A stretch of 64,000 nucleotides of DNA from Oscillospiraceae bacterium (GCA_017435045.1 JAFSFT010000031.1:15274-79273), one strand, 5' to 3'. Numbered from the stretch's first letter, positions 42,496 through 62,136 are shown. The notes: a model not told the origin generated them from the sequence alone. Translations and numbers: made by a program.

Positions 42496-43620
42496 ATGAA
42501 AAAGAACAGCGAACCAAACAACACAAAACCCGAAGACAAGCTTAAACAGCAGCGGACACCTTTAAAGAAAAAACGTGCCGGTGTTGTTCTGTCACGCCAT
42601 CAGGTAAAGGAAATTAAAGCGGGGCGTAAAAAGCTTCGTAAAGAGCTTAAGAAGGCGGGCATAAAAAGCAAAAAGGACTTTGAGGTTACAGCGGCAAGCC
42701 TTGGTCTGTATTTTGACAAGCCAAAGGGCAGCCTGTTCTGGCTGCTGCTCAAGGGCAAAGCCCTGTGGGCACTGCTTGGTGCTGCGGCACTGTTTCTGTC
42801 GGTTCTGTTCCTTTTCTCTCTCCTCGAACAGATGAGAGGTCACTTTACCATCAACCTCAGTGAAGAGATGCTTAACAAAGGTTTTATCTTAAGCGAAACC
42901 GAGGATTTCTCAAACCCTGTAACGGTGCTTTACTGCGAGCCAAAAACCAACGTGGCGGCAACCTCCATATCCCATATCCCTACAGATGTTATGGATCATC
43001 AGGGTATGTATGATGACGACACAGTCTTTGCCTACAGCTTCTTTATGAAGTACGAGGGCGAGGAAACAGGCCATTACCGATATGATATAAAGGTTAACTC
43101 TGAATATCTTGACGTAAGCAAGGCCTGCTGGGTAATGGTTTTTGCAGACGGCGAAATGTCCTTCTATGCCGAAGAAGGCGCAGACGGCCTGCCGGAAAGC
43201 ATACCTGCACAGGACGATAACAGCCGCGGTTATCCGGAAGCATATTTTATGGATTATGCAAAAAATCCGGCCGACCAGTATGAAATTATCAAAGAAATCG
43301 GCAACGCAAAATATTATCGTCTTATACCAAAGCCTTTCAATGACGAAAGACGCGTTACAAGACAGGACGGTATGGCCCTTAACGACCAGGAATATCACAA
43401 ATACACAGTGGTAATCTGGCTGGAGGGTGACGACCCTGAATGTGTAAACGATATTATCGGCGGACATCTCGGTTTACAGATGAACTTTGCACTCCTCGGC
43501 GAAGAGGAAGAAGAGGACTTCGGCCTCAGCAACGAGGGCCTGCTTGATAACCTTGGTCAGTACTGGGTTAAATTTATAGAAGACCTTGAAAGTCTGTTTG
43601 GCGGATTGAAATACGACTAA
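42496..43620 (+). CDS. Family member A: type-II-anchored TasA-like-motif protein with a Lys-rich cytoplasmic tail
   Basis: 374 aa. Tail KKKRAGVV..KAGRKKLRKELKKAGIKSKK. TM ALWALLGAAALFLSVLFLFSLL. The ectodomain ends YTVVIWLEGDDPECVNDIIGGHLGLQMNFALLG, followed by EEEEEDFG. Starts 10 nt after the preceding stop. Confidence 0.6.
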   Translation: MKKNSEPNNTKPEDKLKQQRTPLKKKRAGVVLSRHQVKEIKAGRKKLRKELKKAGIKSKKDFEVTAASLGLYFDKPKGSLFWLLLKGKALWALLGAAALFLSVLFLFSLLEQMRGHFTINLSEEMLNKGFILSETEDFSNPVTVLYCEPKTNVAATSISHIPTDVMDHQGMYDDDTVFAYSFFMKYEGEETGHYRYDIKVNSEYLDVSKACWVMVFADGEMSFYAEEGADGLPESIPAQDDNSRGYPEAYFMDYAKNPADQYEIIKEIGNAKYYRLIPKPFNDERRVTRQDGMALNDQEYHKYTVVIWLEGDDPECVNDIIGGHLGLQMNFALLGEEEEEDFGLSNEGLLDNLGQYWVKFIEDLESLFGGLKYD

Positions 43621-43733
43621 ACTTAAACTTGGCATAAATTGTGCTTTGTTACAGCACTCACAGGGAGGGCTGGCACTGCACATTTATAAATAAATTTTTT
43701 AATCTTTAAAAAATAAGAAAGAAGGAGATTGCA

Positions 43734-45806
43734 ATGAACAACAGAAAAAAGCAGCTTAATTCTATTAAGAAAAAGATGATGGCTGCAACATCTATGTTAT
43801 TGGTAGCATCTATTATGATGGTTTCATCCACATACGCTTGGTTTACACTGTCAACTGCACCAGAAGTTACAGGTATTTCCACAACAGTAGGCGCTAACGG
43901 TAACCTTGAAATCGCATTGGCTAACCCACTTGGTGACCCATCCACAGTTACATCAGGCGTTGGCGATTCCACAGCAAGCGGTAAAGTAGTTACAGCTTCC
44001 AACCTTACTTGGGGTAACCTTGTAGACCTTGGCGATGCAAGCTACGGTCTTAAAGACATCGTTCTCCAGCCTGCAGCACTCAGCGCAGAAGAGGATGCAT
44101 TTACACATGCTATGGTAGTTAAATCCAACATCCTTTCCACACCTGAATACGGTGCAGACGGCAGAGTATCCGCTCTTGTAGACAAATCCACAACAGCGTC
44201 CTTTGATGCTCTGACAGGCAAATGGGTAACAGGTACAACAGAAAACCCAGGTTACGGTGTAAGAGCAGTTGGTCTGCTTTCCGGCCAGAGCGAAACAACT
44301 GTTGCATTCCGTGAAGCACGTGCACAGCTTTCTCAGCAGGCACAGAGTGCTAAAAACTCTGCAAGTGCTGCTTTGGTTGCAAACGGCGACACACTTGGTA
44401 ACGTTATCATCAAAAAAGCTCTCGACGGCGACGCAGCAAGCTTTACAGAAGAAGAACTTGATGCTCTTGGCGAAATGATCGGTGGTCTTGAACACACAAT
44501 GACATACATCGACAAAGCTATCCAGTACGGTGCTCTTGGCCGTGCAGCAAGTGCTGAATTTACAGATACTGTAAAATACGAAGCAATCAAAGCTGCAATT
44601 GCATCCACAGAAACACCTGCAACAGCAGAAAGCATCCTCAAAATCTTCTACGGCACAGTAGCTAATGATGCAGTTACACCTGCAGCTTCTGTTCCAACAG
44701 ATAAAACAGGCGATGTACTTATCGACACATACAACAAATACCTTGCAACAGTAGCTGCTATTGACGTAGCTAACGGTAAATACGAAACAGCTTCAGAAGC
44801 AGGCAACTACTCCTGGGAAGCTATTTCCCCAGTTCTCAACGCACTTGTTGTTTACAACAATGTAACAGTTAACGGCCTTACAGTTGACGATGTTAAAGCT
44901 AACATCAGCGCACTTGTAAACTCTGCTCTTAAAGGCGGTATCAAAGTTACAATGCCAACAGGCTCCGGTGTTATCGCTGACGTTGCTGACCTTGCAGGCG
45001 ACTACTCTGCAGGTATCACACTCAGAAACATCGAATATGCAGGTGCAACTGTAGAAGAACTTCCAGCTACAATGAACACAGCATCCACAGTTGACCCAGA
45101 ACACATCGAAAAAGTTTCTCAGTTCATCCTTTCCAAAGGTGCTATGACTTCCGGTACAGAAGGCGGCGACACATCTACATTTACAGATGCTTACGCTTAC
45201 ATCATCGACCTGTTCTTCAGAACAAACGTTGCAGGCTCTAACCTCCTGCTCCAGACAGAAGCTGTAGACCGTGTATACTCTGACCAGACAGAAGGTGCAA
45301 CACAGGGTAAAGGCAGCTCCATGATTTTCACAACAGAAAATACAGAAGCATTCTCTGTTCCACAGATGAAACAGCTTATGAACTGCATCAAACTTGTATT
45401 TGTTGACGAAGACAATGCAATCCTTGCAAAAGGTATGCTCGACGTTGCTTCCGCAACAGACACAGTTGAAGGCACAACAGGTACTGTTGAAGCAAAAATC
45501 AACCTTTACACAGAAACAACAGTTGACAATGTAACAACTGTAACAAAACTTGAAGGTACAGATGCTAAACTTGCAGCTCTTACACAGAACGAAGCTAAGA
45601 TGGTTTCTGTAATTGTTTACCTCGACGGTGCAAACGTTGACAACTCCATGGTTGCTAACGCTGCAACATCCATGACAGGTATGCTCAACCTCCAGTTTGC
45701 AAGCGATGCACAGCTTGTTCCAATGGAAAACAGCCAGATCAGAGACCTTCCTACAGGTGAAGAAGCAGGCGACAACACAACAGAAGGCGAAGGCGCAGGT
45801 GCATAA
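43734..45806 (+). CDS. Family member B (690 aa): candidate major fibre subunit with a TasA/SipW-type signal motif
   Basis: N-terminus KKKMMAATSMLLVASIMMVSSTYAWFTLSTAPEVTGISTTVGANGNLEIAL (TYAWF at 43830-43844). C-terminal VIVYLDGANVDNSMVANAATSMTGMLNLQFASDAQ. Codon usage is as biased as pheST and the SBP gene. RBS aaggag. Confidence 0.7.
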   Translation: MNNRKKQLNSIKKKMMAATSMLLVASIMMVSSTYAWFTLSTAPEVTGISTTVGANGNLEIALANPLGDPSTVTSGVGDSTASGKVVTASNLTWGNLVDLGDASYGLKDIVLQPAALSAEEDAFTHAMVVKSNILSTPEYGADGRVSALVDKSTTASFDALTGKWVTGTTENPGYGVRAVGLLSGQSETTVAFREARAQLSQQAQSAKNSASAALVANGDTLGNVIIKKALDGDAASFTEEELDALGEMIGGLEHTMTYIDKAIQYGALGRAASAEFTDTVKYEAIKAAIASTETPATAESILKIFYGTVANDAVTPAASVPTDKTGDVLIDTYNKYLATVAAIDVANGKYETASEAGNYSWEAISPVLNALVVYNNVTVNGLTVDDVKANISALVNSALKGGIKVTMPTGSGVIADVADLAGDYSAGITLRNIEYAGATVEELPATMNTASTVDPEHIEKVSQFILSKGAMTSGTEGGDTSTFTDAYAYIIDLFFRTNVAGSNLLLQTEAVDRVYSDQTEGATQGKGSSMIFTTENTEAFSVPQMKQLMNCIKLVFVDEDNAILAKGMLDVASATDTVEGTTGTVEAKINLYTETTVDNVTTVTKLEGTDAKLAALTQNEAKMVSVIVYLDGANVDNSMVANAATSMTGMLNLQFASDAQLVPMENSQIRDLPTGEEAGDNTTEGEGAGA

Positions 45807-45864
45807 TCGTCTAACTGTTTAAGTGCGATTTTGTTATCAATAACAAAAACTTACATATCTTATA

Positions 45865-45888
45865 TCGGGGCAGTGCCAACTGCCCCGA
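45865..45888 (+). other. GC-rich stem-loop after member B (no U-tract)
   Basis: TCGGGGCAG-tgccaa-CTGCCCCGA followed by ctaagataaaaaaa. Confidence 0.45.
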
Positions 45889-45928
45889 CTAAGATAAAAA
45901 AATTTAATAACGGGAGGAAATGTAAACA

Positions 45929-46915
45929 TTGAAAGTTTCACAGTATAAAAACAAAAAACGCTTTCAGATTGTTAAAGTTTTATATGTGACAATTGTCCTT
46001 CTTGCATTGACTACCGTTGCAACTTATACCTGGTTCAATTTAAGTACAAGACCATCCATCAACGATATGTCCATCTATATCAACAGCGGTGTCGGTCTGG
46101 AACTTTCCCTCGATAAAAACAGCGAGGAATGGTCATCCCAGATAGATTTCCGCGAACTGGAGATGGAAAACACCCCACTCGTACCAATCACTTATTCCCA
46201 GGCAGACAACAGCTTTTACACAGTTGTCCACGGTGCAGACGGCAGAATTGCAAGTGTAGACTATAAAATTCAGCCATCGCCAATACCAAAAAGTCTGGAA
46301 AATAACGGTTATTACCTCAAGGTTTCCTTTTTTGGCAGAACAGACGAGGATATAAAGGTTTATCTCTCTCCTGCAGTGGAACTGGAAAGAGGCACAGTTG
46401 GGGCGGGCACATGGCTTATCGGTGCACCTACATGGGATGGCGAAACTGTCAGCCACAAAAACGGCGGCGGCGGTGCCGAATACGCAATGCGTGTTGGCAT
46501 CAACATTACCTATCTTAACGAACTGGGCAACAGTACAGGCAATTCTGTCTTTTATATGTACGAGCCTAACTACGACGGACATCTTGACGGCTCCACAGGC
46601 TATGTTGAGACAAAGTCTGTAAACGGAGACCCGCTTATAAACGAGCAGTTTCTTATAAAACAGACCAAATCCACCTGGCGTGATGCCGACCTTGTGCAGA
46701 AAAATGTTATTATCAGCGACCTTGGCACCTTTGACAAGGAACCGTTGCTCTTTGAAATTGACGAGGGCGAAATGGTGCAGATAGAGCTTTATTTCTGGCT
46801 GGAAGGTCAGGATATCGACTGCGGCAACCTGCTTAACGAACAGTGTATGATTATGTCAAACATTCAGTTCCGTGCAGAAACAGAGGGCAGCAGCGAACTG
46901 CGTCCTATCTATTGA
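45929..46915 (+). CDS. Family member C (328 aa), TasA/SipW-type signal motif
   Basis: TTG start after gggagg. VLYVTIVLLALTTVATYTWFNLSTRPSINDMSIYINSGVGLELSL. HGADGRIASV parallels YGADGRVSAL of member B. C-terminal IELYFWLEGQDIDCGNLLNEQCMIMSNIQFRAE. Confidence 0.65.
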   Translation: MKVSQYKNKKRFQIVKVLYVTIVLLALTTVATYTWFNLSTRPSINDMSIYINSGVGLELSLDKNSEEWSSQIDFRELEMENTPLVPITYSQADNSFYTVVHGADGRIASVDYKIQPSPIPKSLENNGYYLKVSFFGRTDEDIKVYLSPAVELERGTVGAGTWLIGAPTWDGETVSHKNGGGGAEYAMRVGINITYLNELGNSTGNSVFYMYEPNYDGHLDGSTGYVETKSVNGDPLINEQFLIKQTKSTWRDADLVQKNVIISDLGTFDKEPLLFEIDEGEMVQIELYFWLEGQDIDCGNLLNEQCMIMSNIQFRAETEGSSELRPIY

Positions 46916-46965
46916 TGTTGCTGCTTTTACAGCAGACAGATTGTTATGTAATTTTTATAAATTGC

Positions 46966-47011
46966 ATACCAATCAAAGAACATAAAGCTTTTTGTGTTCT
47001 TTGATTGGTAT
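46966..47011 (+). other. Strong 17-bp stem-loop upstream of the first SipW gene
   Basis: ATACCAATCAAAGAACA (46966-46982) / TGTTCTTTGATTGGTAT (46995-47011). The T-run lies in the loop, not 3' of the stem. TATAAT follows immediately at 47011-47016. Confidence 0.5.
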
Positions 47012-47047
47012 ATAATGACCAAAAATATGTTTTCTTAGGAGGCGCTA

Positions 47048-47935
47048 ATGAAACTGAATAAATTTAACAAAAAAGAAAAACAACAGTTGCGGCAGGCTGC
47101 AGCGGGCGGCAATGTTGCAGAAAATGCCAACGGCGAAGTTATTGTTGTTGAAGAAGAAAAAGGAAGTATCTTAAACACAATTGTTAACGTCTTCCTTGTA
47201 GTTGCTATTGTAATAGCAGTTGTATGTACATATGTGTCATTTGTATCTACATCGGGCAGTGGTGTGCCAAGTATCCTTGGTATAAGACCATTCTCCATCC
47301 AGACAGAATCCATGTATCCTACATTCCTGCCTGGCGACCTTATCATCGATACAGCAGTTGACGACACAAGCGAGCTTGAGGTTGGCGATATCATCACATA
47401 CTGGACAATCATCAACGGCGAACGTGTACTCAACACCCATAGAATTTCAGCTATATATGACGGCGGCGGATACCTCATCTTTGCCACACAGGGTGATAAC
47501 AACCAGTCTGCCGACGCACTTACCGTTCACGAATCGGAGGTTGTAGGTAAGTATAAATTCAGGATACAGGGGTTAGGTAAAGTCTTTGACTATCTGCAGA
47601 CAAGCACAGGCTTCCTTATCGTTGTAGTTGTTCCTGTATTTATCTTCTTTATCTTCCACCTTATCAAGTTCTTCCAGGTGCTCTTTGAATATCAGAACAT
47701 CAAGAACAGAATCGTTTACGAACAGGAAAGAGGCAATGCAGAGGAACTTATTGCTGAACAGAAACGTCAGCAGGAAGAACTTAACCGTCTGCGTGAAGAA
47801 CAGAAAAACAAAGAAAAACAGGAGCTGGAAGAAAAACTGCGTGCTCAGCTTAAAGCTGAAATCCTCGCAGATATGCTCAAGGAAAAAGAAGCTGCTGCAC
47901 CTGCAGAAGCTGCACAAAACGTTGAGGAAGTATAA
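47048..47935 (+). CDS. Signal peptidase I, archaeal/ER (SipW) type, copy 1, with a C-terminal TM and coiled-coil tail
   Basis: 295 aa. Catalytic blocks FSIQTESMYPTFLPGDLII, NTHRISAI and ATQGDNN; compare B. subtilis SipW SGSMEP / THRI / TKGDNN (from memory). Second TM FLIVVVVPVFIFFIFHLIKFF, then EQKRQQEELNRLREEQKNKEKQELEEKLRAQLKAE. Confidence 0.8.
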   Translation: MKLNKFNKKEKQQLRQAAAGGNVAENANGEVIVVEEEKGSILNTIVNVFLVVAIVIAVVCTYVSFVSTSGSGVPSILGIRPFSIQTESMYPTFLPGDLIIDTAVDDTSELEVGDIITYWTIINGERVLNTHRISAIYDGGGYLIFATQGDNNQSADALTVHESEVVGKYKFRIQGLGKVFDYLQTSTGFLIVVVVPVFIFFIFHLIKFFQVLFEYQNIKNRIVYEQERGNAEELIAEQKRQQEELNRLREEQKNKEKQELEEKLRAQLKAEILADMLKEKEAAAPAEAAQNVEEV

Positions 47936-49557
47936 TGGAAGGGTTTTTCAGATATTTCTATCAGGATATTGGCAGAGTGTTCAAGGCATTTCTGGATATG
48001 ATAATGTCCTTTTTCACATTCCTTAACTATCTGCTCAATTTCCCTATGCGAATGGAGATAATCGAAAGCTACTCCGAAGACTTTTCCACAAAAGAATGGA
48101 TAATGCTTTTGATTGCCAACATTCTTTTGGTAGTAATCATCGTAGGCGTGCTTATTCTTATAGGAAAAATCTTTAAAAAGATTTTCCGTTTCCGTGTTCC
48201 GGTTAAAAAATACGACGAGCTTGTAAAGCAGGTTAAGGTGCTGCAGACAGACCTTATCCGTGCCAACTACGAAAAGGATAAGCTGCTTGCCATGAAGGTT
48301 GCCGAGCTGGGTCTTGACCCTGACAAGGAAACAACCGACAAGCTGCTTGAAAGCCTTTACGGTCAGGACGGCAATCTTGCCGAAGGCGTAGAAGAAAACG
48401 GAGAAGAAAAGACAGAGGAAAATCAGGTTTTCGAAACAAACCGCAACACCTTCAATTCTCCTGTTGTTGATCCGTCTACAAGCCGTTTCTTCCGTCTTAC
48501 CGAGGTTGACAACTACTACAAAACACAGTATGTTGCACCGGAATACGAGGAGATGGATCTGGAAGAATTCTGTAACCGCTTCCGTCTCTTTGCAGCAAGC
48601 AAGCTTAAGCTTTACTACGATATTTCTATCATCAGATTCTTTGTTGCATCCATGGGTGCAGCAAGAATTATCATCCTGCAGGGTATTTCCGGTACAGGTA
48701 AAACAAGTTTGCCTTACGCATTCGGTAAATTTGTACAGAAGGACACAACAGTTGTTTCCGTACAGCCTGCATGGAGAGAAAGAACCGAGCTTTACGGTTA
48801 TTTCAACGAATTTACAAAAAGATATACAGAAACAGACTTTTTGAAAGCAGTTTACGAAAGTAACTTCTACAAGGATCCGCATATTATAATCCTGGACGAA
48901 ATGAACATCGCCCGTGTTGAATACTACTTTGCGGAAATGCTTTCAATTCTGGAAATGCCGCTTCAGTCCGAATGGAATATCGACATTGTTACAGCGGTAT
49001 GGGATAACGACCCATGTCTTATCGACCAGGGTAAGGTACGCATCAACAACAACCTCTGGTTTGTTGGTACAATCAACAACGACGACTCCACATTTGCTGT
49101 AGCCGACAAAGTTTACGACCGTGCTATCCCTATCGACCTTGACAGCCGTGCCGAAGCATTTGAGTGCGAAGAATGTGACCCTGTACACGTTAACGTGGAG
49201 ATGCTCAACCGCCTCTTTGACGAAGCAAAGGCAAAATATCCTGTAAGTCAGGATATTCTTGACAAGCTGGACGAAGTTAACGCCTATCTTATCAGCGTAT
49301 TCCGTCTTGCTTTCGGTAACCGTATTATGAAACAGATACGCGACTATGTGCCTTGCTACATTGCCTGCGGCGGCACAGAAATTGAAGCTGTCGACTTTAT
49401 CGTTGCCAAAAAGGTTTTGCGTAAGTTTGAATCCTTAAGCCTTGGCTTTATGAAGGATGACCTTACAAAATTCTCTGCATACCTTGACAAGGTATTCGGC
49501 AAAAACCAGATGAAAATCTGTAAAGAATATATAGAATTACTCAAGAAAAATAACTAA
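47935..49557 (+). CDS. Membrane-anchored McrB-family (AAA_5) AAA+ NTPase
   Basis: The ATG overlaps the SipW stop (TAATG, 47933-47937). TM WIMLLIANILLVVIIVGVLILIG. Walker A GISGTGKTS. Walker B/McrB block IIILDEMNIARVEYYFAEMLSILE. FVGTINNDDSTFAVADKVYDRAIPIDL parallels the McrB GTMNTADRS...D.ALRRRF block. Confidence 0.7.
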   Translation: MEGFFRYFYQDIGRVFKAFLDMIMSFFTFLNYLLNFPMRMEIIESYSEDFSTKEWIMLLIANILLVVIIVGVLILIGKIFKKIFRFRVPVKKYDELVKQVKVLQTDLIRANYEKDKLLAMKVAELGLDPDKETTDKLLESLYGQDGNLAEGVEENGEEKTEENQVFETNRNTFNSPVVDPSTSRFFRLTEVDNYYKTQYVAPEYEEMDLEEFCNRFRLFAASKLKLYYDISIIRFFVASMGAARIIILQGISGTGKTSLPYAFGKFVQKDTTVVSVQPAWRERTELYGYFNEFTKRYTETDFLKAVYESNFYKDPHIIILDEMNIARVEYYFAEMLSILEMPLQSEWNIDIVTAVWDNDPCLIDQGKVRINNNLWFVGTINNDDSTFAVADKVYDRAIPIDLDSRAEAFECEECDPVHVNVEMLNRLFDEAKAKYPVSQDILDKLDEVNAYLISVFRLAFGNRIMKQIRDYVPCYIACGGTEIEAVDFIVAKKVLRKFESLSLGFMKDDLTKFSAYLDKVFGKNQMKICKEYIELLKKNN

Positions 49558-49571
49558 GGTGTAAAAGGACT

Positions 49572-51323: not shown

Positions 51324-51385
51324 AAGCAGTGTGCAGCAAATGCAGAGGCACTGTTTAAAAGAGATTTTTAAGGAGATATTCAACT

Positions 51386-55024: not shown

Positions 55025-55032
55025 TAGAAAAG

Positions 55033-55779: not shown

Positions 55780-55794
55780 AAGGGGGGAAAAGAA

Positions 55795-57801
55795 GTGCAT
55801 AAAAGAAAAATACATAGTATATATCTGTGCGTACTGTCTTTGGTTACAGCATTTATGATGTGTTATTTTTCTGTAGGCACTTCATACGCCCACTATACAT
55901 ATACAAGAGAAAAACAGATTATCATAAACGGCGACGGAAAGCTGGAATCCAATATCTTTTTTGAGGAAGGCTGTCAGGTTATCCTTAAGGACTGGGACCT
56001 TTCAAAGACCATTCCGCCGCAAAAGGTTACAGCACAGTTTACAGGCAGTGCAAAGGGCAGGCTTGAATATACCGTGCAGGGTGAATATGCACAGTATTTT
56101 ACAGTTTCCGTTAAATATGCAGAAAGCGGAAGTGCTGTGGGCACAAATATAATTGATATCTCTGCAGAAACACCAATCAATATTGAAATTGCACCTGTTA
56201 CACCTGCACTAAGCACACTTGCGGACGATATTTCTCCTGTGGTTGAGTTTAAACTGACAACCTACAATCAGGACGGTACAGCAGGCCGTGTGCTGCAGGG
56301 CAGCTTTGTGTGGAATATCCTTGCTGCCGATGCAGGCAGTTATGCAATAAATGCTGCAAATATGCTTGTGGCATCACGTGCAGTGCCTGTACGGCCAAAA
56401 ATAATGCAGCTTACCCTTGTACAGCAGGACGAACAGAATACTGATGCACCTGCAGAGGGCGGCGCTGAAGGCGACACAAACCCTGACGGTACAGAGGGCG
56501 ATACAGGCTCGGACAACACTACAGGTTCCGAGGGCAATACGGGTACAGGCGATACCACGGGTTCTGATGGTAATACCGGCACAGGTGATACCACAGGCTC
56601 TGACAATACAGGCGACAATACAACTTCGGGTGACGCAGGCACAGACGACACCACAGGCGGCAATACCGATGGTTCCGGCGATACTACAGGCGGCACCACC
56701 GAAACTCCTGAAGGCTCTGATGGCACAGGCGATTCTTCCGGCGAAGGTACAGAAGGCGAAGACGACAAGGATGACGAGGAAGAAGAGGAAACAGGCGATA
56801 ACGTTATAGAGGTTATTCCTGCACAGACAGACGTAGACATTATCCTTTGCAATGTGGAGGATGTGTTTGGCGTTGACGGTAAAATTACCTACACAAACAA
56901 AGGCCTTTTCTCCCGGATTACAGCGGACAACGGTGCAGGCTTCGGCGGCGGCTCCATTACAGAGGATATAGTTTTTATCTACGACAGCAAGGCCAGAAGC
57001 GGCGAAGCAGGCTTAAATGTTGATATTTCACCGGAAGCACAGATGGGGGACGAATGTATAATCACATTCCGTTACCAGACATCTGATATGCAGGGTGTTA
57101 TGTCTGAATATATTGAAGAAAAGATTACCGTAAGGGTAATCACCTCTGAACTTCCAACACTTGAAAATGTTGTGGTTACAGATGGCGAAAAGGTTACAAT
57201 CTACGCCACAGTAAACTATGTTCAGGGCACAAAAAACGGCAAAATCAGCGTAACAGGCGGCCTTGAACCTTATACAAAGGTTGTTACAGGCGACAAGATA
57301 TACATTCTGCCGTACGGCGGCAGCTTCCTGCATCCGCTGCCAACAAGGGATGCACAGACCGTTACATATATGGTGGAATATCCAAAGGATACAATTCCAT
57401 CGGAAGTAACAGTAGAAGCAACAAGCTGCTTCTCGGGCAGCTCGGGCGTAAAGGGCAAACAGACAACAGAGGTTAAGGATATGTCCAACACCACCTTTGC
57501 AGGCACCCAGCCACACACGATTATATTGTCATCCGACAATGCAATAGATTTTGATATTATACCAACCATAACAGAAGCAGGCCCTGTGGTTTCCTACACA
57601 GTGGAATACTACAATGGCGAAAGCTATGTTCCTGTTGATGCAGCAGCATTTAAAGGTGTGATATCACAGGACACAACAAAGCTCAGCCTGTCTACAGGCA
57701 CAAAATACCCAAGAGCGGGTGTTTACAGAATGTGTCTGCAGATGCAGCAGGGCAACAATTTATCAATCGCATACAAAACATTTTTCGTAAACTATAGATA
57801 G
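55795..57801 (+). CDS. Family member G (668 aa): TasA-like termini flanking a G/T/D-rich linker and a cohesin-like module
   Basis: GTG start. LCVLSLVTAFMMCYFSVGTSYAHYTYTREKQ. Low-complexity segment at 56440-56800. The module VFGVDGKITYTNKGLFSRITADNGAGFGGGSITEDIVFIYDSKARSGEAGLNVDISPEAQMGDECIITFRYQ is paralogous to the 39891 protein. C-terminal QQGNNLSIAYKTFFVNYR. Confidence 0.65.
   Translation: MHKRKIHSIYLCVLSLVTAFMMCYFSVGTSYAHYTYTREKQIIINGDGKLESNIFFEEGCQVILKDWDLSKTIPPQKVTAQFTGSAKGRLEYTVQGEYAQYFTVSVKYAESGSAVGTNIIDISAETPINIEIAPVTPALSTLADDISPVVEFKLTTYNQDGTAGRVLQGSFVWNILAADAGSYAINAANMLVASRAVPVRPKIMQLTLVQQDEQNTDAPAEGGAEGDTNPDGTEGDTGSDNTTGSEGNTGTGDTTGSDGNTGTGDTTGSDNTGDNTTSGDAGTDDTTGGNTDGSGDTTGGTTETPEGSDGTGDSSGEGTEGEDDKDDEEEEETGDNVIEVIPAQTDVDIILCNVEDVFGVDGKITYTNKGLFSRITADNGAGFGGGSITEDIVFIYDSKARSGEAGLNVDISPEAQMGDECIITFRYQTSDMQGVMSEYIEEKITVRVITSELPTLENVVVTDGEKVTIYATVNYVQGTKNGKISVTGGLEPYTKVVTGDKIYILPYGGSFLHPLPTRDAQTVTYMVEYPKDTIPSEVTVEATSCFSGSSGVKGKQTTEVKDMSNTTFAGTQPHTIILSSDNAIDFDIIPTITEAGPVVSYTVEYYNGESYVPVDAAAFKGVISQDTTKLSLSTGTKYPRAGVYRMCLQMQQGNNLSIAYKTFFVNYR
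56440..56800 (+). repeat. Low-complexity Gly/Thr/Asp/Glu-coding segment with imperfect tandem repeats
   Basis: Encodes DAPAEGGAEGDTNPDGTEGDTGSDNTTGSEGNTGTGDTTGSDGNTGTGDTTGSDNTGDNTTSGDAGTDDTTGGNTDGSGDTTGG...EGEDDKDDEEEEETGD. The unit GNTGTGDTTGSD appears twice in tandem. Confidence 0.8.
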
Positions 57802-57819
57802 GAGGCTTTCAGCAGAATC

Positions 57820-60800
57820 ATGACTGATACACAAAAGTATATTCAGGCGTATAAAGCTGCTCTGCCACGGCTCAGAGAAAAGGTCGCGGCAGCGGTTATG
57901 ATGCTTGTAATATCGGCAATTATGGCAACTTCTGCAACATTTGCGTGGGTTTCCCTCTCTGTTAACCCTGAGGTTTCAAACATTCAGACAACAGTAACAG
58001 CAAACGGCAACCTTGAAATTGCCCTTTCGGATGTTGATGGCCTCGAGCCAGAAAAATCCCAGGTAGGGGACAGCGGCAAAGACCTTGTGGTAAAGAACGT
58101 TACATGGGGTAACCTTGTAAACCTTTCCGACCCTCTTTACGGTCTTGGCAAGCTTACACTACGCCCTGCAGAACTTAACACAACAGGCGACCTGCTTACA
58201 GCACCGCTTAAGGTTGTTACATACGGCAAGGACGGCCGTGTTGACAAGTTCTCCAGCAGCCTGCTTTACACAAAATATGACGAGGCATCAGGCGAATATC
58301 TTGTGCCTGACGACGACGGATTTGGTGTAAAGATTATTTCGGCTGTTGAATACAAAAACGTAACAGGTGCAAACGATTACCAGAATATGCTTGCAGAAGC
58401 CGAAACCAACTGGTCAGCAGCAAACAGCATCTATCAGGGGCTTATCTCAAACCAGAACAACCTTGATGCACTTTCCGGTCTTATCGGTGCTTTCGTTGAC
58501 AACAAGCTCAACGGCGGTTCTCCGGACGTTTCTGTATATGTTCCAAAGCTGTACAGTATGATGCTGGAATTCCAGGATTTTGTGGATGCAACAGACGGTG
58601 TTCTCTGCAACCTGGCTGTTATACACCAGTATCCTCATATGGCAGAAGAAGAAATTATCTACCACGATATTGAAGAGCTTCTGGCAGCAACAGATGCAGA
58701 GCGTGAGGCACGTCACGTAAAAATTGACGGTCTTGCAACCTATAAGAGTGACAGAACAAAGCTTAAACAGTACATTGCAGAACTTAAATCTTTTAGCGAT
58801 AAGGTTACAGTTAACGGCGGTACAGTTACATGGCAGGAAATCTCCCATATTATGAACTTTATGGTTGATATTCCGTCCACAACAATCAACGGCATTGCAG
58901 CAAAAGACGTTGGCATGAGCGAAGCTGCAGGTATGATTTTTGGCACACAGAAGGCAGTTATCCATAAGGGTGCCATCTACAACATGGAAAAAATGTCCGG
59001 TTCCCGTATGTATGTGCCAAAAGTTTCAATCAGTGCAACAGTTAAAGGTATGTCTGCTTCTGTTAAAGCTTCTGTAGAAACAAGCGTAACAGAGCCTTAC
59101 TACATCAAAGAGGCTGTTAACGACGCCCGCAGCTACGGCGGCGAATTTGCAGGCGGCGACGCAGTTGCAACAGACACATACGGCCTTGCAATGGACCTGT
59201 GGCTGCGTACCAACGCAACAAATGCATATCTCGTGCTGGAAGGCAGCCCGATTATCGAACAGGTTGAACAGGTTGACGAAGACGGCAACGTTGTAACAGA
59301 CGAAAACGACGAGCCGATTATGATTGACGCTGTTACAGGCTACGACGGTGCAAACAGAATCTGGAACGATGGTGCATCAGGCCCTAACAGTACAACACAG
59401 GGCAACGGCAGCTGCTATATCTTCTATGCAGACGACCCTATCATCCAGCAGAAAGCACTGGAAGTTATGGGTGCAATGAAGGTTGCATTTGTGGATGCAG
59501 CAGGCAGAGCAATTGCCTATGCAGACATGGACGTTGCACACGCATATCAGGAAACAGGTAAAATCACCATTCCTCTGGTACTCAACGGCAGAAGCACAGA
59601 AATTCTCGATGCCGAAGGCAATCCTGTAAAGGACCTTGTAACAGGCGAAAGCTACTATGCGGTTAAAAAGCTGGAAAAGAACACAGCAGAACGCATAACA
59701 GCAATTCTTTATATTGACGGTACACAGGTAACAAATACCGATGTTCTGGCAGATGCTGACATTCAGGGTCAGCTTAACCTGCAGTTCGGCATCAATGAAC
59801 AGATGGCACCTGCAGACGACGAAGACCTCAAGTTTGAGGAAGTTCTTATTACAGGTGAACTTTCCAAAGACGAGTTCGACTTTGATACAGAAACAGACTT
59901 CTCAACCCTTGTAACACTTACAGTTGACGGCATTGAACCTGAAAGGGTAACAGCAAACTTTATCCGTGCAATCAACGAAACACAGGGTACAAGAGAAAAA
60001 GAAATTACATTTGAAATGCAGAGCAACAACATCAAGTGGACCTCCACAATGGACTTTGACGCTCCTGGTAACTACATCCTCAGAAGTGTATTCCTCGATG
60101 GTGTTGAATACGACCTTGAAGAACCACTTGTAGCAACAGTTAAGGGCTACGGCATCAAGTCCCTGTCCTGTGACAAGGTATTTGGCGGTTCATCCGCAAC
60201 ATATATGACAGCGGACAACTACCTTGATGCAAGCTACACACTGGTAATGGCTTCCTCTGCACGCAAACCTGCAAAAATCCAGGGTGTTCTCTCCAACGAA
60301 CACGGCCAGCAGATTATCACCGACTTTAAGGCAGGCACAGACTTCTACAAAGCCAACGTAAGGTTTGAAACTTCCGGTACTTACAAGATGACACATCTTA
60401 TCATCGACGGCGAATGGTACGAAGTTCCTGCTGCAGTAACAAAAGTGCTGCATCTCTACCTTGGTATGACCACAAAGGTTATGCTGTCTGAAACAGACTT
60501 TATCCTCGAAGAACCACGCACAGTTGAGGTTTACGCCGAGGTTTATAACGACAAGGACGAAGAGATGGAAGGTCTTACAGACACAAAAATCCGCTTCAGC
60601 CACAAGACAAACGGCCTTACTGTTCTTGACAGCGATATGACATGGAACGAAGATACAGGCAGATACGAGGGTAACTTCCTTGTACAGCGTGCAGGTGTTT
60701 ACAACTTTGCATTCTTCCGTGCAGGCGAAAGCACAATCAGACAGGGTGAGTCTCCATCCATCAGAGCAAGCTCGCCTGAACCACCAAAATATGTAGGTCT

Positions 60801-62136
60801 TGCAGTGGAAGAATTCCAGTTCAGACCAGACAACGATGCTGCATTTGGCGTACAGATAAGCAACTCTGAAACACTGGCAGAGGCAGTTTACAATGCCGAA
60901 ACAGGCGAACTGGTAACACCTGGCGACCTTGTTGCAACAATCCGCTACCGCGGTGTTGACAACACAGTTACAAACGGTACTGAAATTCAGGTTTATGGCG
61001 AAGCAGTTTCCACTGTTGGCGATGTTACAACATGGCACTTTACACCATACGGCACAGCAGCCGACGGCACAAAGATTACACCGGACGGCACACAGCAGGG
61101 CTACTGGGAACTTGTTGATGTAACAATGACCTACCTTGGTATAAATGAAAACTTTGAAGAAGAACAGATTACTGAAAAATACATTATTGCAGAGGTAATC
61201 AAGGACGGCGAAACTGCAGTTACACAGGTATCTACAGATATCTCCAAAAACGTTCAGGCTACCATTACAGGTGCAAGCAGGAACTTTACAGACCCAATGC
61301 TTACAGACCACTATGTAACTGACCTTGTTGTAACCATCACAGATATCAAGGGCAACCCTGTAGAAGGCATTACAGATGTTAAGTTTACATATAACTATAC
61401 ACCTGACAGAAGTGTGTTCAACACAGGCAGCAGCTTGCCGGGCGAAGGTGACCCAAGAGCAATTGATGCAGAAAAAGTTGTAACAGGTACAGCAGAGGAT
61501 GGCACAGATATCTTAAGCGAAACACAGTATAAGATGGTAGATTATGAGGACGATACTAAGGATATGAACCTTGTATACTGTGGTACCTACATAACAGGCA
61601 TTCAGTTTACAATGAATGGTGTAACATACACAGGTACAACAGGCACACCAACAGCATCCCAGATTCAGCTTAAAGGCACAGTGCCAACATATACTGTAAA
61701 ATGGAATCAGCCATCTGTAACAGTTGTTTCCACAAACCCTGCTGCAGGCACATCATTTACTGGTGTAGCATCTTCAAGTAACTATGGTGCATCTGTTAAA
61801 AATGCTGTAGACACAGAAAATAATAAGATGACAGCTTACTTTAAATCCAGCAAGAGACTGTGGTATTACAATTTGTCTGTATCTACAGGTACATTCAGAC
61901 TCAGCGGTGCAGGCGATAACTTTACATCAGCTACACTGAGAATTGGCGAGGTAGACTTTACATTTAAATCCAACACAACAGCTTCCGGTAATATCGGTAA
62001 GGTTACATCCAAGACATTGGCAACTGACGAAAGAACATCGGCAAGCGGTACATACAGTACAATCAGTATTACAGGCAAGGATGGCATTACATATACAGTA
62101 ACAATCACAAAACCTGTAGTTATTGTAAACCCATAA
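57820..62136 (+). CDS. Family member H (1438 aa): TasA-like module (~650 aa, paralogous to member B) plus a ~780-aa C-terminal extension of repeated beta-sandwich-like modules; candidate adhesin
   Basis: AAAVMMLVISAIMATSATFAWVSLSVNPEVSNIQTTVTANGNLEIAL. Colinear with member B: TWGNLVNLSDPLYGL/TWGNLVDLGDASYGL, YGKDGRVDKF/YGADGRVSAL and ILYIDGTQVTNTDVLADADIQGQLNLQFGI/VIVYLDGANVDNSMVANAATSMTGMLNLQFAS. The extension carries recurring G-x-Y-x4-6 strand motifs. Confidence 0.7.
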   Translation: MTDTQKYIQAYKAALPRLREKVAAAVMMLVISAIMATSATFAWVSLSVNPEVSNIQTTVTANGNLEIALSDVDGLEPEKSQVGDSGKDLVVKNVTWGNLVNLSDPLYGLGKLTLRPAELNTTGDLLTAPLKVVTYGKDGRVDKFSSSLLYTKYDEASGEYLVPDDDGFGVKIISAVEYKNVTGANDYQNMLAEAETNWSAANSIYQGLISNQNNLDALSGLIGAFVDNKLNGGSPDVSVYVPKLYSMMLEFQDFVDATDGVLCNLAVIHQYPHMAEEEIIYHDIEELLAATDAEREARHVKIDGLATYKSDRTKLKQYIAELKSFSDKVTVNGGTVTWQEISHIMNFMVDIPSTTINGIAAKDVGMSEAAGMIFGTQKAVIHKGAIYNMEKMSGSRMYVPKVSISATVKGMSASVKASVETSVTEPYYIKEAVNDARSYGGEFAGGDAVATDTYGLAMDLWLRTNATNAYLVLEGSPIIEQVEQVDEDGNVVTDENDEPIMIDAVTGYDGANRIWNDGASGPNSTTQGNGSCYIFYADDPIIQQKALEVMGAMKVAFVDAAGRAIAYADMDVAHAYQETGKITIPLVLNGRSTEILDAEGNPVKDLVTGESYYAVKKLEKNTAERITAILYIDGTQVTNTDVLADADIQGQLNLQFGINEQMAPADDEDLKFEEVLITGELSKDEFDFDTETDFSTLVTLTVDGIEPERVTANFIRAINETQGTREKEITFEMQSNNIKWTSTMDFDAPGNYILRSVFLDGVEYDLEEPLVATVKGYGIKSLSCDKVFGGSSATYMTADNYLDASYTLVMASSARKPAKIQGVLSNEHGQQIITDFKAGTDFYKANVRFETSGTYKMTHLIIDGEWYEVPAAVTKVLHLYLGMTTKVMLSETDFILEEPRTVEVYAEVYNDKDEEMEGLTDTKIRFSHKTNGLTVLDSDMTWNEDTGRYEGNFLVQRAGVYNFAFFRAGESTIRQGESPSIRASSPEPPKYVGLAVEEFQFRPDNDAAFGVQISNSETLAEAVYNAETGELVTPGDLVATIRYRGVDNTVTNGTEIQVYGEAVSTVGDVTTWHFTPYGTAADGTKITPDGTQQGYWELVDVTMTYLGINENFEEEQITEKYIIAEVIKDGETAVTQVSTDISKNVQATITGASRNFTDPMLTDHYVTDLVVTITDIKGNPVEGITDVKFTYNYTPDRSVFNTGSSLPGEGDPRAIDAEKVVTGTAEDGTDILSETQYKMVDYEDDTKDMNLVYCGTYITGIQFTMNGVTYTGTTGTPTASQIQLKGTVPTYTVKWNQPSVTVVSTNPAAGTSFTGVASSSNYGASVKNAVDTENNKMTAYFKSSKRLWYYNLSVSTGTFRLSGAGDNFTSATLRIGEVDFTFKSNTTASGNIGKVTSKTLATDERTSASGTYSTISITGKDGITYTVTITKPVVIVNP

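Follow-up and report, generated by a model that had tools for sequence, protein, structure and literature searches.

The locus analysed here encodes a multi-gene SipW system in which peptidases, substrates, an anchor, a GTPase pair and an HD-GYP protein are inherited together, with their order kept, across Clostridia. With a probability of roughly 0.55, we read it as a SipW-processed, donor-strand-type surface fibre with an anchor, a tip adhesin, cohesin-like docking, GTPase-gated or GTPase-driven assembly and HD-GYP control. The fibre, the cleavage site and the GTPase activity of the members found here are predictions from the genes.

Gene layout and conservation of the locus

The window (the whole stretch of 64,000 nucleotides that was analysed) contains 16 ORFs between 33551 and 63916, all on the + strand. 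The features discussed below are:

33339..33367, +: promoter-like site TTGAAA-17-TATAAT upstream of o1 (11/12 consensus match alone)
33551..39805, +: o1, 2084-aa secreted giant with a Sec-type signal peptide and a C-terminal type I dockerin (Dockerin_1)
39891..41012, +: o2, secreted protein with a cohesin-like module, FIVAR and a C-terminal membrane anchor
41028..42485, +: o3, HD-GYP and EAL domains (HD_5 E 6.8e-11, EAL E 1.2e-13)
42496..43620, +: o4, bitopic substrate paralogue; TM segment at aa 83-113, o6-like domain outside the cell
43734..45806, +: o5, 690-aa substrate; signal anchor ends TYAWF (nt 43830-43844)
45857..45895, +: GC-rich stem-loop just after o5 (z = -5.9 versus shuffles)
45929..46915, +: o6, 328-aa substrate; TYTWF (nt 46022-46036)
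46966..47011, +: 21-bp perfect stem-loop after o6 (z = -6.0)
47048..47935, +: o7, SipW-type (S26B) signal peptidase 1 (TIGR02228, 88.8 bits)
47935..49557, +: o8, predicted membrane-anchored McrB-like GTPase, NxD clade (PDB profile match, AAA_5, motifs)
49572..51323, +: o9, McrC-like partner (DUF2357 N-domain and coiled coil)
51386..52771, +: o10, 461-aa substrate and full-length o6 paralogue; SYAWL
52777..53487, +: o11, SipW-type signal peptidase 2 (TIGR02228, 86.5 bits)
53459..55024, +: o12, 521-aa protein of its own family; signal anchor ends T-A-A-W-Y (AAWYNN)
55033..55779, +: o13, 248-aa protein; signal anchor ends V-A-W-A-R-F
55795..57801, +: o14, 668-aa protein; SYAHY, low-complexity T/G/D linker, cohesin-like module
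57820..62136, +: o15, 1438-aa o5 paralogue; TFAWV, about 760 extra C-terminal residues
62149..62178, unstranded: GC-rich palindromic hairpin (12 bp) directly after the o15 stop

Junctions between the ORFs are short: 15 nt (o2/o3), 10 nt (o3/o4), 14 nt (o8/o9), 5 nt (o10/o11), 8 nt (o12/o13), 15 nt (o13/o14) and 18 nt (o14/o15). The start of o8 lies on the stop of o7 with a one-base TAATG overlap at 47935, and o11 and o12 overlap by 29 nt. A previous, sequence-only reading of this DNA had described the same co-directional layout, and all of its junction and overlap values were found again. It had placed the core of the locus at 42496-62136; we set the start earlier, at the conserved HD-GYP protein o3 (41028), and o1 and o2 probably also belong to the core. 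Judging from its sequence, the promoter-like site may mark where the transcription unit starts, and the hairpin after o15, which has no T-run on the + strand, may mark its end. A BspA-type LRR surface protein adjoins the locus, and the surroundings are of a chromosomal housekeeping nature (pheT, transporters, a T-box leader). Profile searches found no sortase, prepilin peptidase, PilB/PilT or usher domains in any of the 16 products, and LPXTG is absent from the products of the locus, in agreement with what had been noticed before.

Conservation was assessed on 55 species-level loci having at least 5 kb of flanking sequence on both sides. The McrC-like partner and SipW are each present in 54 loci, an o4-like anchor and a motif-family substrate each in 53, o6 in 47, o11 in 44, o10 in 27, o12 in 24 and o13 in 14. 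An o3-type gene occurs in 34/55, and compact variants retain the HD-GYP part alone. The gene order is kept as well: o9 immediately follows o8 in 53/55 loci, o7 directly precedes o8 in 42/55, and the GTPase pair and SipW are adjacent in 54/55, spread over several Bacillota families. The minimal conserved system consists of the anchor, one small subunit, a peptidase and the GTPase pair, with neither cohesin nor dockerin. It had been suggested to look in relatives for the order of SipW, AAA+ protein, partner and substrates; that order is conserved, with partner, SipW, anchor and substrate each present in 53-54/55 loci, and this co-conservation bears out the claim that the NTPase pair is part of one multi-gene SipW system.

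Of 32 related loci, 88% have a stable structure at the o5/o6 junction, with a median z of -6.2, and the stem-loop at 45857..45895 is a candidate attenuator or mRNA stabiliser. Its frequency is also a clue to o5 as the major subunit. The stem-loop after o6 is not kept in relatives, as z falls below -3 in 7% of the loci.

Peptidases, GTPase pair, cargo and substrates

Both o7 and o11 score above the cut-off (51.85) of the archaeal-type signal peptidase I model TIGR02228, which confirms that two SipW-like (ER/archaeal-type) peptidases are encoded. Of the two TM segments of o7 (aa 38-71 and 181-215), the second is followed by a charged cytoplasmic tail of 80 aa, and o11 likewise has a charged cytoplasmic tail. 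The serine motif SMxP, the histidine motif THR and GDNN of o7 are kept across 56 homologues and the catalytic motifs of o11 across 61 sequences. With Ser, His and GDxN conserved, both enzymes look catalytically intact and active. In B. subtilis, SipW also has a separate function in signalling, which lies in its cytoplasmic C-terminal tail (PMC8767453).

In o8 a TM segment (approximately aa 50-86) is followed by a conserved helical segment and the AAA+ domain. When the family profile is compared with the PDB, McrB is the sole NTPase matched (E 4.4e-5), and Pfam AAA_5 is detected in 30/31 family members. Walker A, Walker B and NNDDST show no variation across 79 homologues, and the signature was confirmed in the NxD register. 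Close homologues number at least 8000, thousands of them with about 70% identity across 540 aa, and at least 564 GTDB species carry a GTPase of this type. Among cultured bacteria, Lachnospiraceae bacterium 10-1, Anaerosporobacter faecicola KCTC 15857 and Ruminococcus albus KH2T6 are candidate carriers of the system. The partner o9 combines a DUF2357 N-domain (approximately aa 1-330) with a 250-aa coiled coil. Of 35 family members, 19 contain DUF2357 (best E 6e-13); the other matches are coiled-coil families, and no nuclease domain is seen among these 35. The proposal of a McrB-family AAA+ protein with a coiled-coil partner is upheld: by its sequence, the pair is a McrBC derivative consisting of a GTPase on a membrane anchor and a nuclease-less McrC-like partner.

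At the upstream end, Dockerin_1 matches o1 with 26.3 bits as a segment (cut-off 22.9; 22.7 bits for the whole protein). Many related loci have o1-like genes upstream, and o1 is a probable docked cargo. In o2, FIVAR is matched with E 5.5e-6 and a C-terminal hydrophobic segment covers aa 316-348. A module of about 105 aa is common to o2 and o14 (BLASTP 43% identity over 107 aa, E 1e-22); it spans positions 7-130 of 139 of the Pfam Cohesin model, but at 15.5 bits it stays below the cut-off of 24.1. The cohesin cargo that had been suggested gains little support from this score, the module being at most cohesin-like, although o1 does have a dockerin. The HD dyad of o3 reads HQ here, its HxERxDGxGYP motif is conserved, and the protein is presumed to be a c-di-GMP-linked regulator of the locus.

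The seven aromatic-Ala-aromatic motifs reported earlier (TYAWF, TYTWF, SYAWL, AAWYNN, VAWARF, SYAHY, TFAWV) all lie directly after the sole N-terminal hydrophobic segment of o5, o6, o10 and o12-o15, and the reported size range of 248-1438 aa is correct. In 80 related loci the strict motif T[YFW]A[WYF][FLVM] follows a hydrophobic 15-mer in 84 of the 969 ORFs on the operon strand but in 2 of the 503 on the other strand, so the motif is commoner than chance. As to the strand said to follow the motif, o5 and o15 have G-N-L-E-I-A-L exactly, o6 approximately and o10 in a loose form; o15 has the same N-terminal extension as o5 (TFAWVSLSVNPEV...GNLEIAL).

Profile alignments with hhalign relate o4 to o6 (98.6% over 231 columns), o6 to o10 (100%), o5 to o15 (100% over 601 columns) and o5 to o6 (99.1%, N-terminal region). 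By these alignments o4, o5, o6, o10 and o15 form a superfamily of five paralogous surface proteins, with o12-o14 as three further proteins. All eight but o4 end their signal anchor in a TasA-like [TS]-x-[AT]-x-[FLVY]. The o12 family keeps [ST]xAW[YF] and o12 shows no relationship to o6 past the N-terminus; the o13 family motif is G[TV][AT][YFW][AG]RY. In o4, 'MRGHFTINLS' occupies the position of the T-x-A-x-F motif, and the basic cytoplasmic N-domain is conserved. The anchored relative that had looked uncleaved is thus a real o6 paralogue lacking the motif, and we propose it as membrane anchor or terminator.

The smallest and most widely conserved subunit is o6, which also occurs in the compact variants. 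In its family alignment W35, F36, E212-P213-N214, W290 and E292-G293-x-D295 are near-invariant, and its AF2 model has pLDDT 85 and pTM 0.81. The o5 model (pLDDT 85) shows a beta-rich body with a long helical insertion. In the o5 family, 20 of the 63 invariant columns fall within aa 34-61, and the overlapping aa 33-55 are modelled as disordered (pLDDT < 50 against about 85 overall). We propose o5 as the major subunit and o15 as tip or adhesin subunit; giant terminal genes occupy the position of o15 in two compact loci (L041, L058).

Proposed mechanism and alternative explanations

In the fibre reading, Sec would insert the precursors as signal-anchored proteins, and SipW would cut after T-x-A, leaving a new N-terminus W-F-x-L-S-x-x-P-x-V... 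The exposed N-terminal segment would then act as a donor strand completing the beta-sandwich of the next subunit; the segment after the motif is the most conserved part of the substrates and is disordered in the monomer model. The fibre would grow from the membrane with o5 as major subunit, o6 and o10 as minor or adaptor subunits, o15 as tip adhesin and the uncleavable o4 as terminal membrane anchor, while the cohesin-like module of o14 (and o2) would dock the dockerin-bearing o1. On the cytoplasmic face, a McrB-like hexamer would hold the McrC-like shaft in its pore and be tethered beside the peptidases via coiled coils (peptidase tails, o8, o9). GTP would be spent to gate or drive subunit processing and extrusion, and the HD-GYP protein would place the system under c-di-GMP-type control. 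Comparison of the substrates with known structures gave no match to a pilin or to TasA, and polymerisation is therefore argued solely from N-terminal conservation plus disorder and from analogy. The role given to the GTPase is a guess, since TasA, chaperone-usher pili and similar donor-strand fibres do without a cytoplasmic NTPase.

An unlikely competitor is an export and maturation pathway for a non-filamentous, cellulosome-like adhesin complex. Here SipW would release or mature wall proteins, o4 would anchor them, cohesin-dockerin contacts would assemble the complex, and the GTPase pair would be a regulator or quality control rather than a motor. The dockerin of o1, the cohesin-like module of o2 and o14, the nearby BspA-type protein, the lack of a structural match to a known fibre subunit and the large, diverse substrates (248-1438 aa) all agree with this. 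However, five paralogues sharing one invariant N-terminal extension that is disordered as a monomer are typical of strand-exchange subunits, one paralogue (o4) is specifically uncleavable, and the minimal system does without cohesin and dockerin.

It is rather improbable that the locus makes a very divergent TasA/camelysin matrix fibre, that is, an oversized tapA-sipW-tasA with an NTPase add-on. The T-x-A-x-F end of the substrate signals is indeed TasA-like, as had been claimed, and identical to that of TasA-family proteins, whose real signals end GGGTYAYFSD; the TasA sequence given in the earlier reading is 99% identical to a metagenome copy. The o6 family gives two matches to the model TIGR04088 and one to TIGR04087 among 45 members, and the non-significant Foldseek matches include AbpA (7ueg) along with further jelly-roll or donor-strand proteins. 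Moreover, the homology of AbpA and TasA itself required the most sensitive methods (PMC9245690). Against this, Peptidase_M73 (PF12389) matches neither the proteins of the window nor the 45 o6-family members, and TIGR04088 matches none of 60 members of the o5, o10, o12 and o13 families. Alignment to the real TasA family by hhalign is not significant for any of seven families; the highest probability, 32%, concerns o6 and covers the TasA signal and first strands only. A PDB sequence search with the substrate family profile returned no matches, and for both models (pLDDT 85) Foldseek found nothing at E < 0.001, with TasA outside the top 50. The TasA-type substrates of the sequence-only reading are therefore not sustained: by sequence and model comparison only the signal motif resembles TasA, and the proteins are not demonstrably TasA or camelysin.

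A CoCoNuT-lineage system for conflict or defence, with the GTPase as sensor or transducer and the SipW-processed proteins as effectors or decoys (e.g. phage receptors shed or remodelled on attack), seems more doubtful still. The GTPase has its closest relatives in predicted conflict systems (CoCoNuTs and the PADLOC candidate PDC-M26A, which o8 matches strongly with E 1.4e-41), and other members of its NxD clade are predicted restriction or RNA-targeting systems. Nevertheless, the locus contains neither a nuclease nor another toxic effector, o9 consisting of DUF2357 and a coiled coil, and PADLOC searches with o9, the peptidases, o4 and o3 gave no matches. The housekeeping surroundings also argue against defence, as do the high GTPase identity and stable synteny, unlike fast-turnover defence islands; the HD-GYP regulator and adhesin-type cargo suggest surface biology.

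McrBC relatives are mobile and often found in islands, but chance insertion of a McrBC-like pair into a SipW locus is effectively refuted by the co-conservation; the o7/o8 overlap and the replacement of the DNA-binding domain by a membrane anchor next to a nuclease-less partner also speak against it.

Comparison with known systems

The tapA-sipW-tasA (B. subtilis), sipW-tasA-calY (B. cereus) and sipW-bsaABC (C. perfringens) operons resemble the present locus in encoding a dedicated ER/archaeal-type peptidase together with its substrates, in the T-x-A-x-F signal ends, in an accessory anchor or nucleator and in the absence of sortase. The conserved N-terminal segment, the donor strand in TasA and BsaA, likewise has a counterpart here. 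For BsaA, donor-strand exchange between signal-anchored subunits followed by SipW cleavage has been proposed, and type IV pilus proteins are reported to contribute to the export of bsa-operon proteins, most clearly BsaC (PMC11580942). Differences lie in the gene number (3-4 against 13-16 here) and in the substrates, which in TasA-type operons are 200-260 aa with PF12389 and here 248-1438 aa, unclassified and without significant TasA sequence or fold match. TasA-type operons have no NTPase, and here there are two peptidases with long cytoplasmic tails.

Type IV pili, Tad and Com systems share membrane-anchored precursors carrying a hydrophobic helix at the N-terminus, a peptidase devoted to these, a hexameric NTPase in the cytoplasm, a large tip protein besides several minor subunits, and frequent c-di-GMP control. 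Their aspartic prepilin peptidase cuts before the hydrophobic segment, whereas the S26B serine peptidase would cut after it; the locus has a McrB-type GTPase rather than a PilB/PilT-type ATPase, and it lacks a PilC-like platform and the G|F-x-x-x-E signature. Chaperone-usher and type V pili resemble the locus in the proposed N-terminal extension completing a neighbour's beta-sandwich, in a dedicated terminator or anchor subunit (cf. PapH) and in the hairpin that follows the gene of the major subunit. The present host is Gram-positive, chaperone and usher are missing and a cytoplasmic NTPase is present; strand exposure in type V pili is similarly proteolytic but by a different enzyme.

The GTPase pair shares with E. 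coli McrBC the AAA+ GTPase core, Walker A, Walker B, the N-x(x)-D signature and a partner with DUF2357; in McrC this domain enters the McrB ring, stimulating GTP hydrolysis. Here a membrane anchor replaces the DNA-binding N-domain, a coiled coil replaces the PD-(D/E)xK nuclease, the signature is NxD instead of NxxD, and the neighbours are surface protein genes.

The energy-coupling component had been called undescribed, but the association of McrB-like GTPase, McrC-like protein and signal peptidase was already named CoCoPALM by Bell et al. (eLife 2024, PMC11090510), who suggested pilus assembly in one paragraph and deferred the analysis. The class agrees with our locus in its McrB-like GTPase of the NxD clade, which has a membrane and helical module at the N-terminus, its coiled-coil DUF2357 McrC homologue, its tight association with signal-peptidase-family genes and its occurrence in Bacillota. 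The 'FtsB-like' label of the anchor was not reproduced with Pfam; at the sequence level, nothing contradicts membership in CoCoPALM. Beyond that paper, the present analysis adds the families of substrates and their T-x-A-x-F signal, the uncleaved anchor, the pair of peptidase paralogues, the gene for the HD-GYP protein and the cohesin-dockerin cargo.

Layout of the locus and its assignment to CoCoPALM

All 16 ORFs between positions 33551 and 63916 of the window lie on the + strand, and the tight junctions listed in the sequence-only reading are confirmed throughout: gaps of 10, 14, 5, 8, 15 and 18 nt, a TAATG overlap between o7 and o8, and a 29-nt overlap between o11 and o12. As an observation that reading is sound. 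Its interpretation is partly right: the genes do form one conserved system, whereas TasA membership of the substrates and an undescribed energy component are not borne out. The surroundings are ordinary chromosome: upstream are genes for solute-binding proteins, for an M18 aminopeptidase and for a protein of the sulfatase family, besides pheT, which is preceded by a T-box leader; the T-box at pheS/pheT is ordinary housekeeping regulation. A hairpin further along (28635-28680) resembles a terminator acting in both directions, placed between genes that converge or adjoin. Only metagenome assemblies contain exact copies of o6, so the host is uncultured.

Features of the locus and its surroundings (window positions)
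10116-10370, + strand: T-box leader upstream of pheS/pheT, 104.7 bits
28635-28680: perfect palindromic hairpin of 20 bp with T-runs on both sides
39551-39694, + strand: type I dockerin (26.3 bits) at the C-terminus of o1, a giant protein of 2084 aa
39999-40313, + strand: cohesin-like 105-aa module of o2 (aa 37-141)
41028-42485, + strand: o3, HD-GYP protein with conserved HxERxDGxGYP motif
45857-45895: GC-rich stem-loop 3' of o5, z -5.9
46966-47011: perfect 21-bp stem-loop in the gap from o6 to the first sipW gene, z -6.0
47048-47935, + strand: o7, SipW-type signal peptidase, TIGR02228 88.8 bits
47935-49557, + strand: o8, McrB-like GTPase, Pfam AAA_5
49572-51323, + strand: o9, McrC-like partner with a conserved 330-aa N-domain, the remainder coiled coil
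52777-53487, + strand: o11, SipW-type signal peptidase, TIGR02228 86.5 bits
56818-57138, + strand: module of o14 (aa 342-448), a putative substrate, common with o2
62216-63916, + strand: o16, surface protein with BspA-type leucine-rich repeats (LRR_5 E 7.5e-65), membrane-anchored at its C-terminus

A combination of this kind has been named before. Bell et al. (eLife 2024, PMC11090510) mention a McrB-like GTPase whose N-terminus carries a fused FtsB-like domain (transmembrane plus coiled coil), in association with an McrC-like protein and a signal peptidase. Coiled coils occur on the McrB and McrC homologues alike; the systems are called CoCoPALM, and their analysis is deferred to a later paper. 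We found no literature follow-up to this paragraph, and the text supplements of Bell et al. are silent on CoCoPALM. The window fits three of the four features, namely the NxD GTPase, the DUF2357 coiled-coil McrC homologue and the signal-peptidase association; the fourth, the 'FtsB-like' label, was not reproduced with Pfam for the o8 anchor. It is very likely that the locus belongs to CoCoPALM. With the McrB-like association already in print, the claim that the energy component had not been described is wrong.

In the text of Bell et al. there is no description of substrates, anchor, regulator or paired peptidases. Their class has been named without characterisation, and this locus belongs to it at full size. 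Our additions are the families of substrates and their TasA-like signal motif, an anchor that lacks the cleavage motif, a regulator, docking modules, and a probable identity for the major subunit and the tip. Specialists would be surprised by a GTPase of restriction origin tied to a SipW fibre; the association is already published, and every step of the mechanism is what we infer.

Signal peptidases, putative substrates and the comparison with TasA

Both signal peptidases are of the S26B SipW type. They clear the 51.85-bit cut-off of TIGR02228, the archaeal/ER-type signal peptidase I model, and the Ser of SMxP, the His of THR and the GD[NA]N motif are kept in 56 sequences for o7 and 61 for o11. 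These residues are equated by motif, rather than by structural alignment, with the catalytic triad Ser47/His87/Asp106 of B. subtilis SipW (PMC8767453). Scores against NF046067, the Bacillus SipW equivalog model, are 90.4 bits (o7) and 72.1 bits (o11), far under its 190-bit cut-off; judged by these scores, the two are of the same type as Bacillus SipW yet not its orthologues. In each, a charged tail of 60-80 aa extends into the cytoplasm after a second membrane segment, and the short cytoplasmic tail of B. subtilis SipW is known to have a signalling role apart from catalysis (PMC8767453).

Seven products have a single N-terminal hydrophobic segment closing on a [TS]-x-[AT]-x-[FLVY]-type motif: TYAWF in o5, TYTWF in o6, SYAWL in o10, TAAWY in o12, VAWARF in o13, SYAHY in o14 and TFAWV in o15. 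This signal end is kept across species within each family, and in 80 related loci its strict form occurs in 84 of 969 ORFs on the operon strand against 2 of 503 on the opposite strand. Pfam and NCBIfam hold no family for any of the substrates, as searched with the window products and, at relaxed thresholds, with 45 and 60 family members; one weak match each to 'bindosome BasC' and 'fimbrial BcfA' was set aside.

Profile-profile comparison shows that the paralogy of o4, o6 and o10 extends over their full length (98.6% and 100%), that o5 and o15 are paralogous across about 600 columns (100%), and that o5 and o6 have a common region in their first 109 residues (99.1%); o12, o13 and o14 are separate families. 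In o4 a conserved basic cytoplasmic N-domain leads into a membrane segment and then into MRGHFTINLS, at the place where the other paralogues have T-x-A-W-F-x-L-S. This is the anchored relative that had looked uncleaved. Low-complexity linkers rich in T/G/D/S (GDTTGS-type repeats) are present in o14 (aa ~205-335, 56400-56800) and in o13 (55600-55640), and may be glycosylation or spacer regions.

The region directly past the predicted cut stands out in the o5 family, where residues 34-61 hold 20 of the 63 invariant columns. In the AlphaFold monomer model residues 33-55 have a pLDDT below 50, the rest being confident, and o15 bears nearly the same N-terminal segment. Invariant yet apparently unstructured in the modelled monomer, o5 aa 34-61 would be what a donor strand looks like. 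That the product is an extracellular polymer we rate slightly better than an even chance. A surface complex that forms no filament is an unlikely alternative explanation of the same parts: the disordered N-extension is common to the subunits, and the minimal core of the system consists of an anchor plus a subunit, both of which argue against it.

The sequence-only reading likened the substrates to TasA. The resemblance of the signal ends is real: plasmid-borne Bacillus 'TasA family' proteins have signals ending GGGTYAYFSD...GTLDL, the substrate motif is the same in form as their TYAYF, and the B. subtilis TasA sequence used for the comparison is 99% identical to a metagenome copy. For a SipW-cognate signal the outcome is divided. 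The motif is found in seven proteins and is enriched in relatives, whereas TIGR04088 ('SipW-dependent-type signal peptide') matches only 2 proteins of the o6 family out of 45 (best E 0.0058) and none of 60 from the o5, o10, o12 and o13 families.

Searches with whole proteins gave no further link. Pfam PF12389 (Peptidase_M73, camelysin/TasA) has no match in any window protein, nor in the 45 o6-family members at E up to 5. The o6-family profile found no match among PDB sequences, and direct substrate searches of the PDB likewise gave nothing useful. With hhalign the substrates reach a non-significant 32% at most against a TasA-family alignment, covering the signal and first strands only; since that alignment has little depth, its 14 sequences being taken from plasmids of Bacillus and from metagenome loci and belonging mostly to the Bacillus cereus group, the negative is not the last word. 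A jelly-roll of TasA/AbpA type was not recognised either. The AlphaFold models of o6 (pLDDT 85, pTM 0.81; an N-terminal helix and an all-beta body) and o5 (pLDDT 85; a beta body with inserted helices of 30-48 residues) gave nothing at E < 0.001 in Foldseek against the PDB. For o6 the top match is concanavalin A (E 0.01, TM 0.16), AbpA takes rank 25 (E 0.12) and TasA is missing from the top 50; matches of o5 to HopQ, AcrA and a hook-junction protein are due only to its long helices. Given the lack of M73 and fold matches and the weak hhalign result, the likeness to TasA systems is one of layout and signal type, and family membership is at present without support. The relationship between AbpA and TasA is itself visible only with the most sensitive methods (PMC9245690), which leaves room for a very remote link; a true but very divergent TasA system keeps a small share of the probability.

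GTPase, McrC-like partner and conservation of the system

The sole NTPase in the PDB matched by the o8 family profile is E. coli McrB (E 4.4e-5), and the motifs GISGTGKTS, xILDEMNI and GT[IA]NNDDST are invariant in 79 homologues. When aligned with its coiled-coil-fused relatives, o8 has an invariant N and D two positions apart, followed by D, E or Q. This signature agrees with the NxD variant, which defines one branch of the McrB GTPases (Bell et al. 2024, PMC11090510). Residues 50-86 are hydrophobic and run into a strongly basic stretch, so that the GTPase domain would be cytoplasmic; a conserved helical motif, NYEKDK[IL]LAMKV, comes next. Pfam FtsL, FtsL_2 and DivIC each match 2 of 31 family members weakly (E 0.02-0.16). 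In the o9 family DUF2357, the McrC N-terminal domain, is found in 19 of 35 members (best E 6e-13) next to many coiled-coil family matches, with no nuclease family among them. The DNA-binding N-domain of McrB and the PD-(D/E)xK nuclease of McrC, as in canonical McrBC, are absent, the o8 N-terminus being a membrane segment and the o9 family having DUF2357 and coiled coil only. On sequence grounds the pair is a McrBC derivative. In a metagenome assembly of the same organism (ENA ERZ28654771; L096 5007-6643) the GTPase gene is called as two ORFs, of 322 and 218 aa, which reflects a frameshift variant or else faulty assembly.

The GTPase lineage, and a match of o8 to the PADLOC candidate defence family PDC-M26A (E 1.4e-41), might indicate a conflict system of the CoCoNuT type. 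PADLOC, however, matches the GTPase alone, with nothing for o9, both peptidases, o4 or o3. There is no effector, the synteny is stable and the context is that of housekeeping genes, and we consider a conflict system improbable.

Close homologues of o8 number at least 8000, typically about 70% identical over the full length; 741 clusters (50% identity) match o8 at E <=1e-30, and relatives occur in at least 564 GTDB species. Co-conservation was counted over the 55 species-level loci whose flanks reach 5 kb or more on each side. The McrC-like gene is present in 54 (directly downstream of the GTPase in 53), SipW in 54 with one copy or more (two in the window), an o4-like anchor in 53, a motif-family substrate likewise in 53, and the HD-GYP gene in 34. 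The order o3-o4-o5-o6-o7-o8-o9-o10-o11-o12-(o13)-o15 recurs in about 40 species of Oscillospiraceae, Lachnospiraceae and other Clostridia. Gene order in relatives had been put forward as a check, and SipW, partner and substrates are each found in 53-54 of the 55 loci. The locus is one system, and a widespread one; chance adjacency of two modules is refuted by this co-conservation. The span of gut and rumen Bacillota species, with GTPase identity at this level over thousands of sequences, indicates that it is probably a major, unstudied surface organelle of Oscillospiraceae, Lachnospiraceae and Ruminococcus, groups that matter for fibre degradation and host colonisation.

A compact form is seen in Lachnospiraceae bacterium 10-1 and Anaerosporobacter faecicola, with the order HD-GYP, anchor, one subunit, (SipW), GTPase, McrC-like gene, SipW, two to three small proteins with the motif, and lastly a giant of about 1800-2000 aa. 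Variants are also found in Ruminococcus albus, Bacilli and Mycoplasmatota MAGs. Those of the Ruminococcus type (L060, L065, L068, L069, L071, L076, L077, L078) have the o4-like anchor gene doubled in tandem and a McrC-like partner that, at 700-990 aa, is much longer; in R. albus KH2T6 one motif-bearing subunit lies on the opposite strand. In the window o16 comes after a hairpin that sits 3' of o15, and LRR giants of about 1830 aa stand at the locus end in two Bacilli MAGs (L047, L054).

The HD-GYP protein, compared over o3 of the window and its homologues in L001-L079, differs between the forms. Large variants have degenerate HD and HHE motifs (HQ, HME) and an appended EAL domain, compact ones canonical HD and HHE and no EAL. 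At the o5/o6 junction a stable structure is present in 88% of 32 related loci (L001-L040; median z -6.2), the remaining operon junctions being unstructured. A conserved hairpin at this place is the pattern expected 3' of a highly expressed major-subunit gene, and it may govern how much major subunit is made relative to the machinery. Relatives do not keep the stem-loop that separates o6 from the first sipW, and its Rfam miRNA match is sub-threshold and spurious. Apart from this and the T-box elsewhere, no c-di-GMP riboswitch or other Rfam element was found in the leaders and junctions. The module common to o2 and o14 (43% identity, E 1e-22) scores 15.5 bits against Pfam Cohesin, under threshold, yet spans the whole model; a cohesin-dockerin link may join the giant o1 to the SipW-processed set.

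Proposed assembly and relation to known filament systems

The proposal builds on what is shown here: a parts list, the paralogy of the surface proteins, the catalytic and nucleotide-binding motifs, the inferred topology and co-inheritance across species. Precursors would sit in the membrane as signal-anchored proteins, to be cleaved by SipW after T-x-A. In TasA the SipW cut falls after GTWA. The freed W-F-x-L-S-x-x-P-x-V segment might then enter the next, still-anchored subunit, so that the fibre grows from its base, a scheme also proposed for BsaA in C. perfringens (PMC11580942). The uncleavable o4 would terminate and anchor the fibre, o15 would be a version of the major subunit o5 that serves as tip or adhesin, and o14 would dock o1. 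Under the membrane a McrB-like ring with a McrC-like shaft would lie beside the peptidases, tied to them by coiled coils, and the ring would use GTP to gate or drive processing and extrusion. The HD-GYP protein would couple the system to c-di-GMP.

That the GTPase drives or gates assembly is a tentative suggestion, which we hold at somewhat less than even odds. In C. perfringens type IV pilus proteins contribute to the export of bsa-operon proteins, most clearly BsaC (PMC11580942), and this may serve as a partial precedent for an energy-coupled step; the mention of 'McrB' in that preprint is a mere E. coli genotype. In its complete form our reading is that CoCoPALM may be an unrecognised mechanistic class of Gram-positive surface filament, in which subunits of a new fold family are signal-anchored, trimmed by SipW to expose a donor strand and polymerised from the membrane, with the McrB/McrC GTPase (hexameric ring, central shaft) as cytoplasmic motor or gate. 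We put its probability at roughly one in three. Testable components are named (an anchor, a major subunit and a tip, besides the two peptidases, the motor and the regulator), as are cultured hosts.

Differences from the established systems are clear. The 16 products contain no prepilin peptidase, PilB/PilT-type ATPase or PilC platform domain, and neither a sortase domain nor an LPxTG-like motif. The hydrophobic segment stands before the conserved motif, not after it as in the class III signals of type IV pilus, Tad and Com systems. If the proposed reading is true, envelope biogenesis has taken over a McrBC GTPase of defence type, fibres that depend on SipW reach well past the small TasA family, and such a filament class is widespread in gut and rumen Clostridia. 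It would give Gram-positive bacteria a route that couples cytoplasmic nucleotide hydrolysis to a sortase-independent, non-type-IV filament, and would join type IV and conjugative pili as a third kind of pilus machine coupled to an NTPase.
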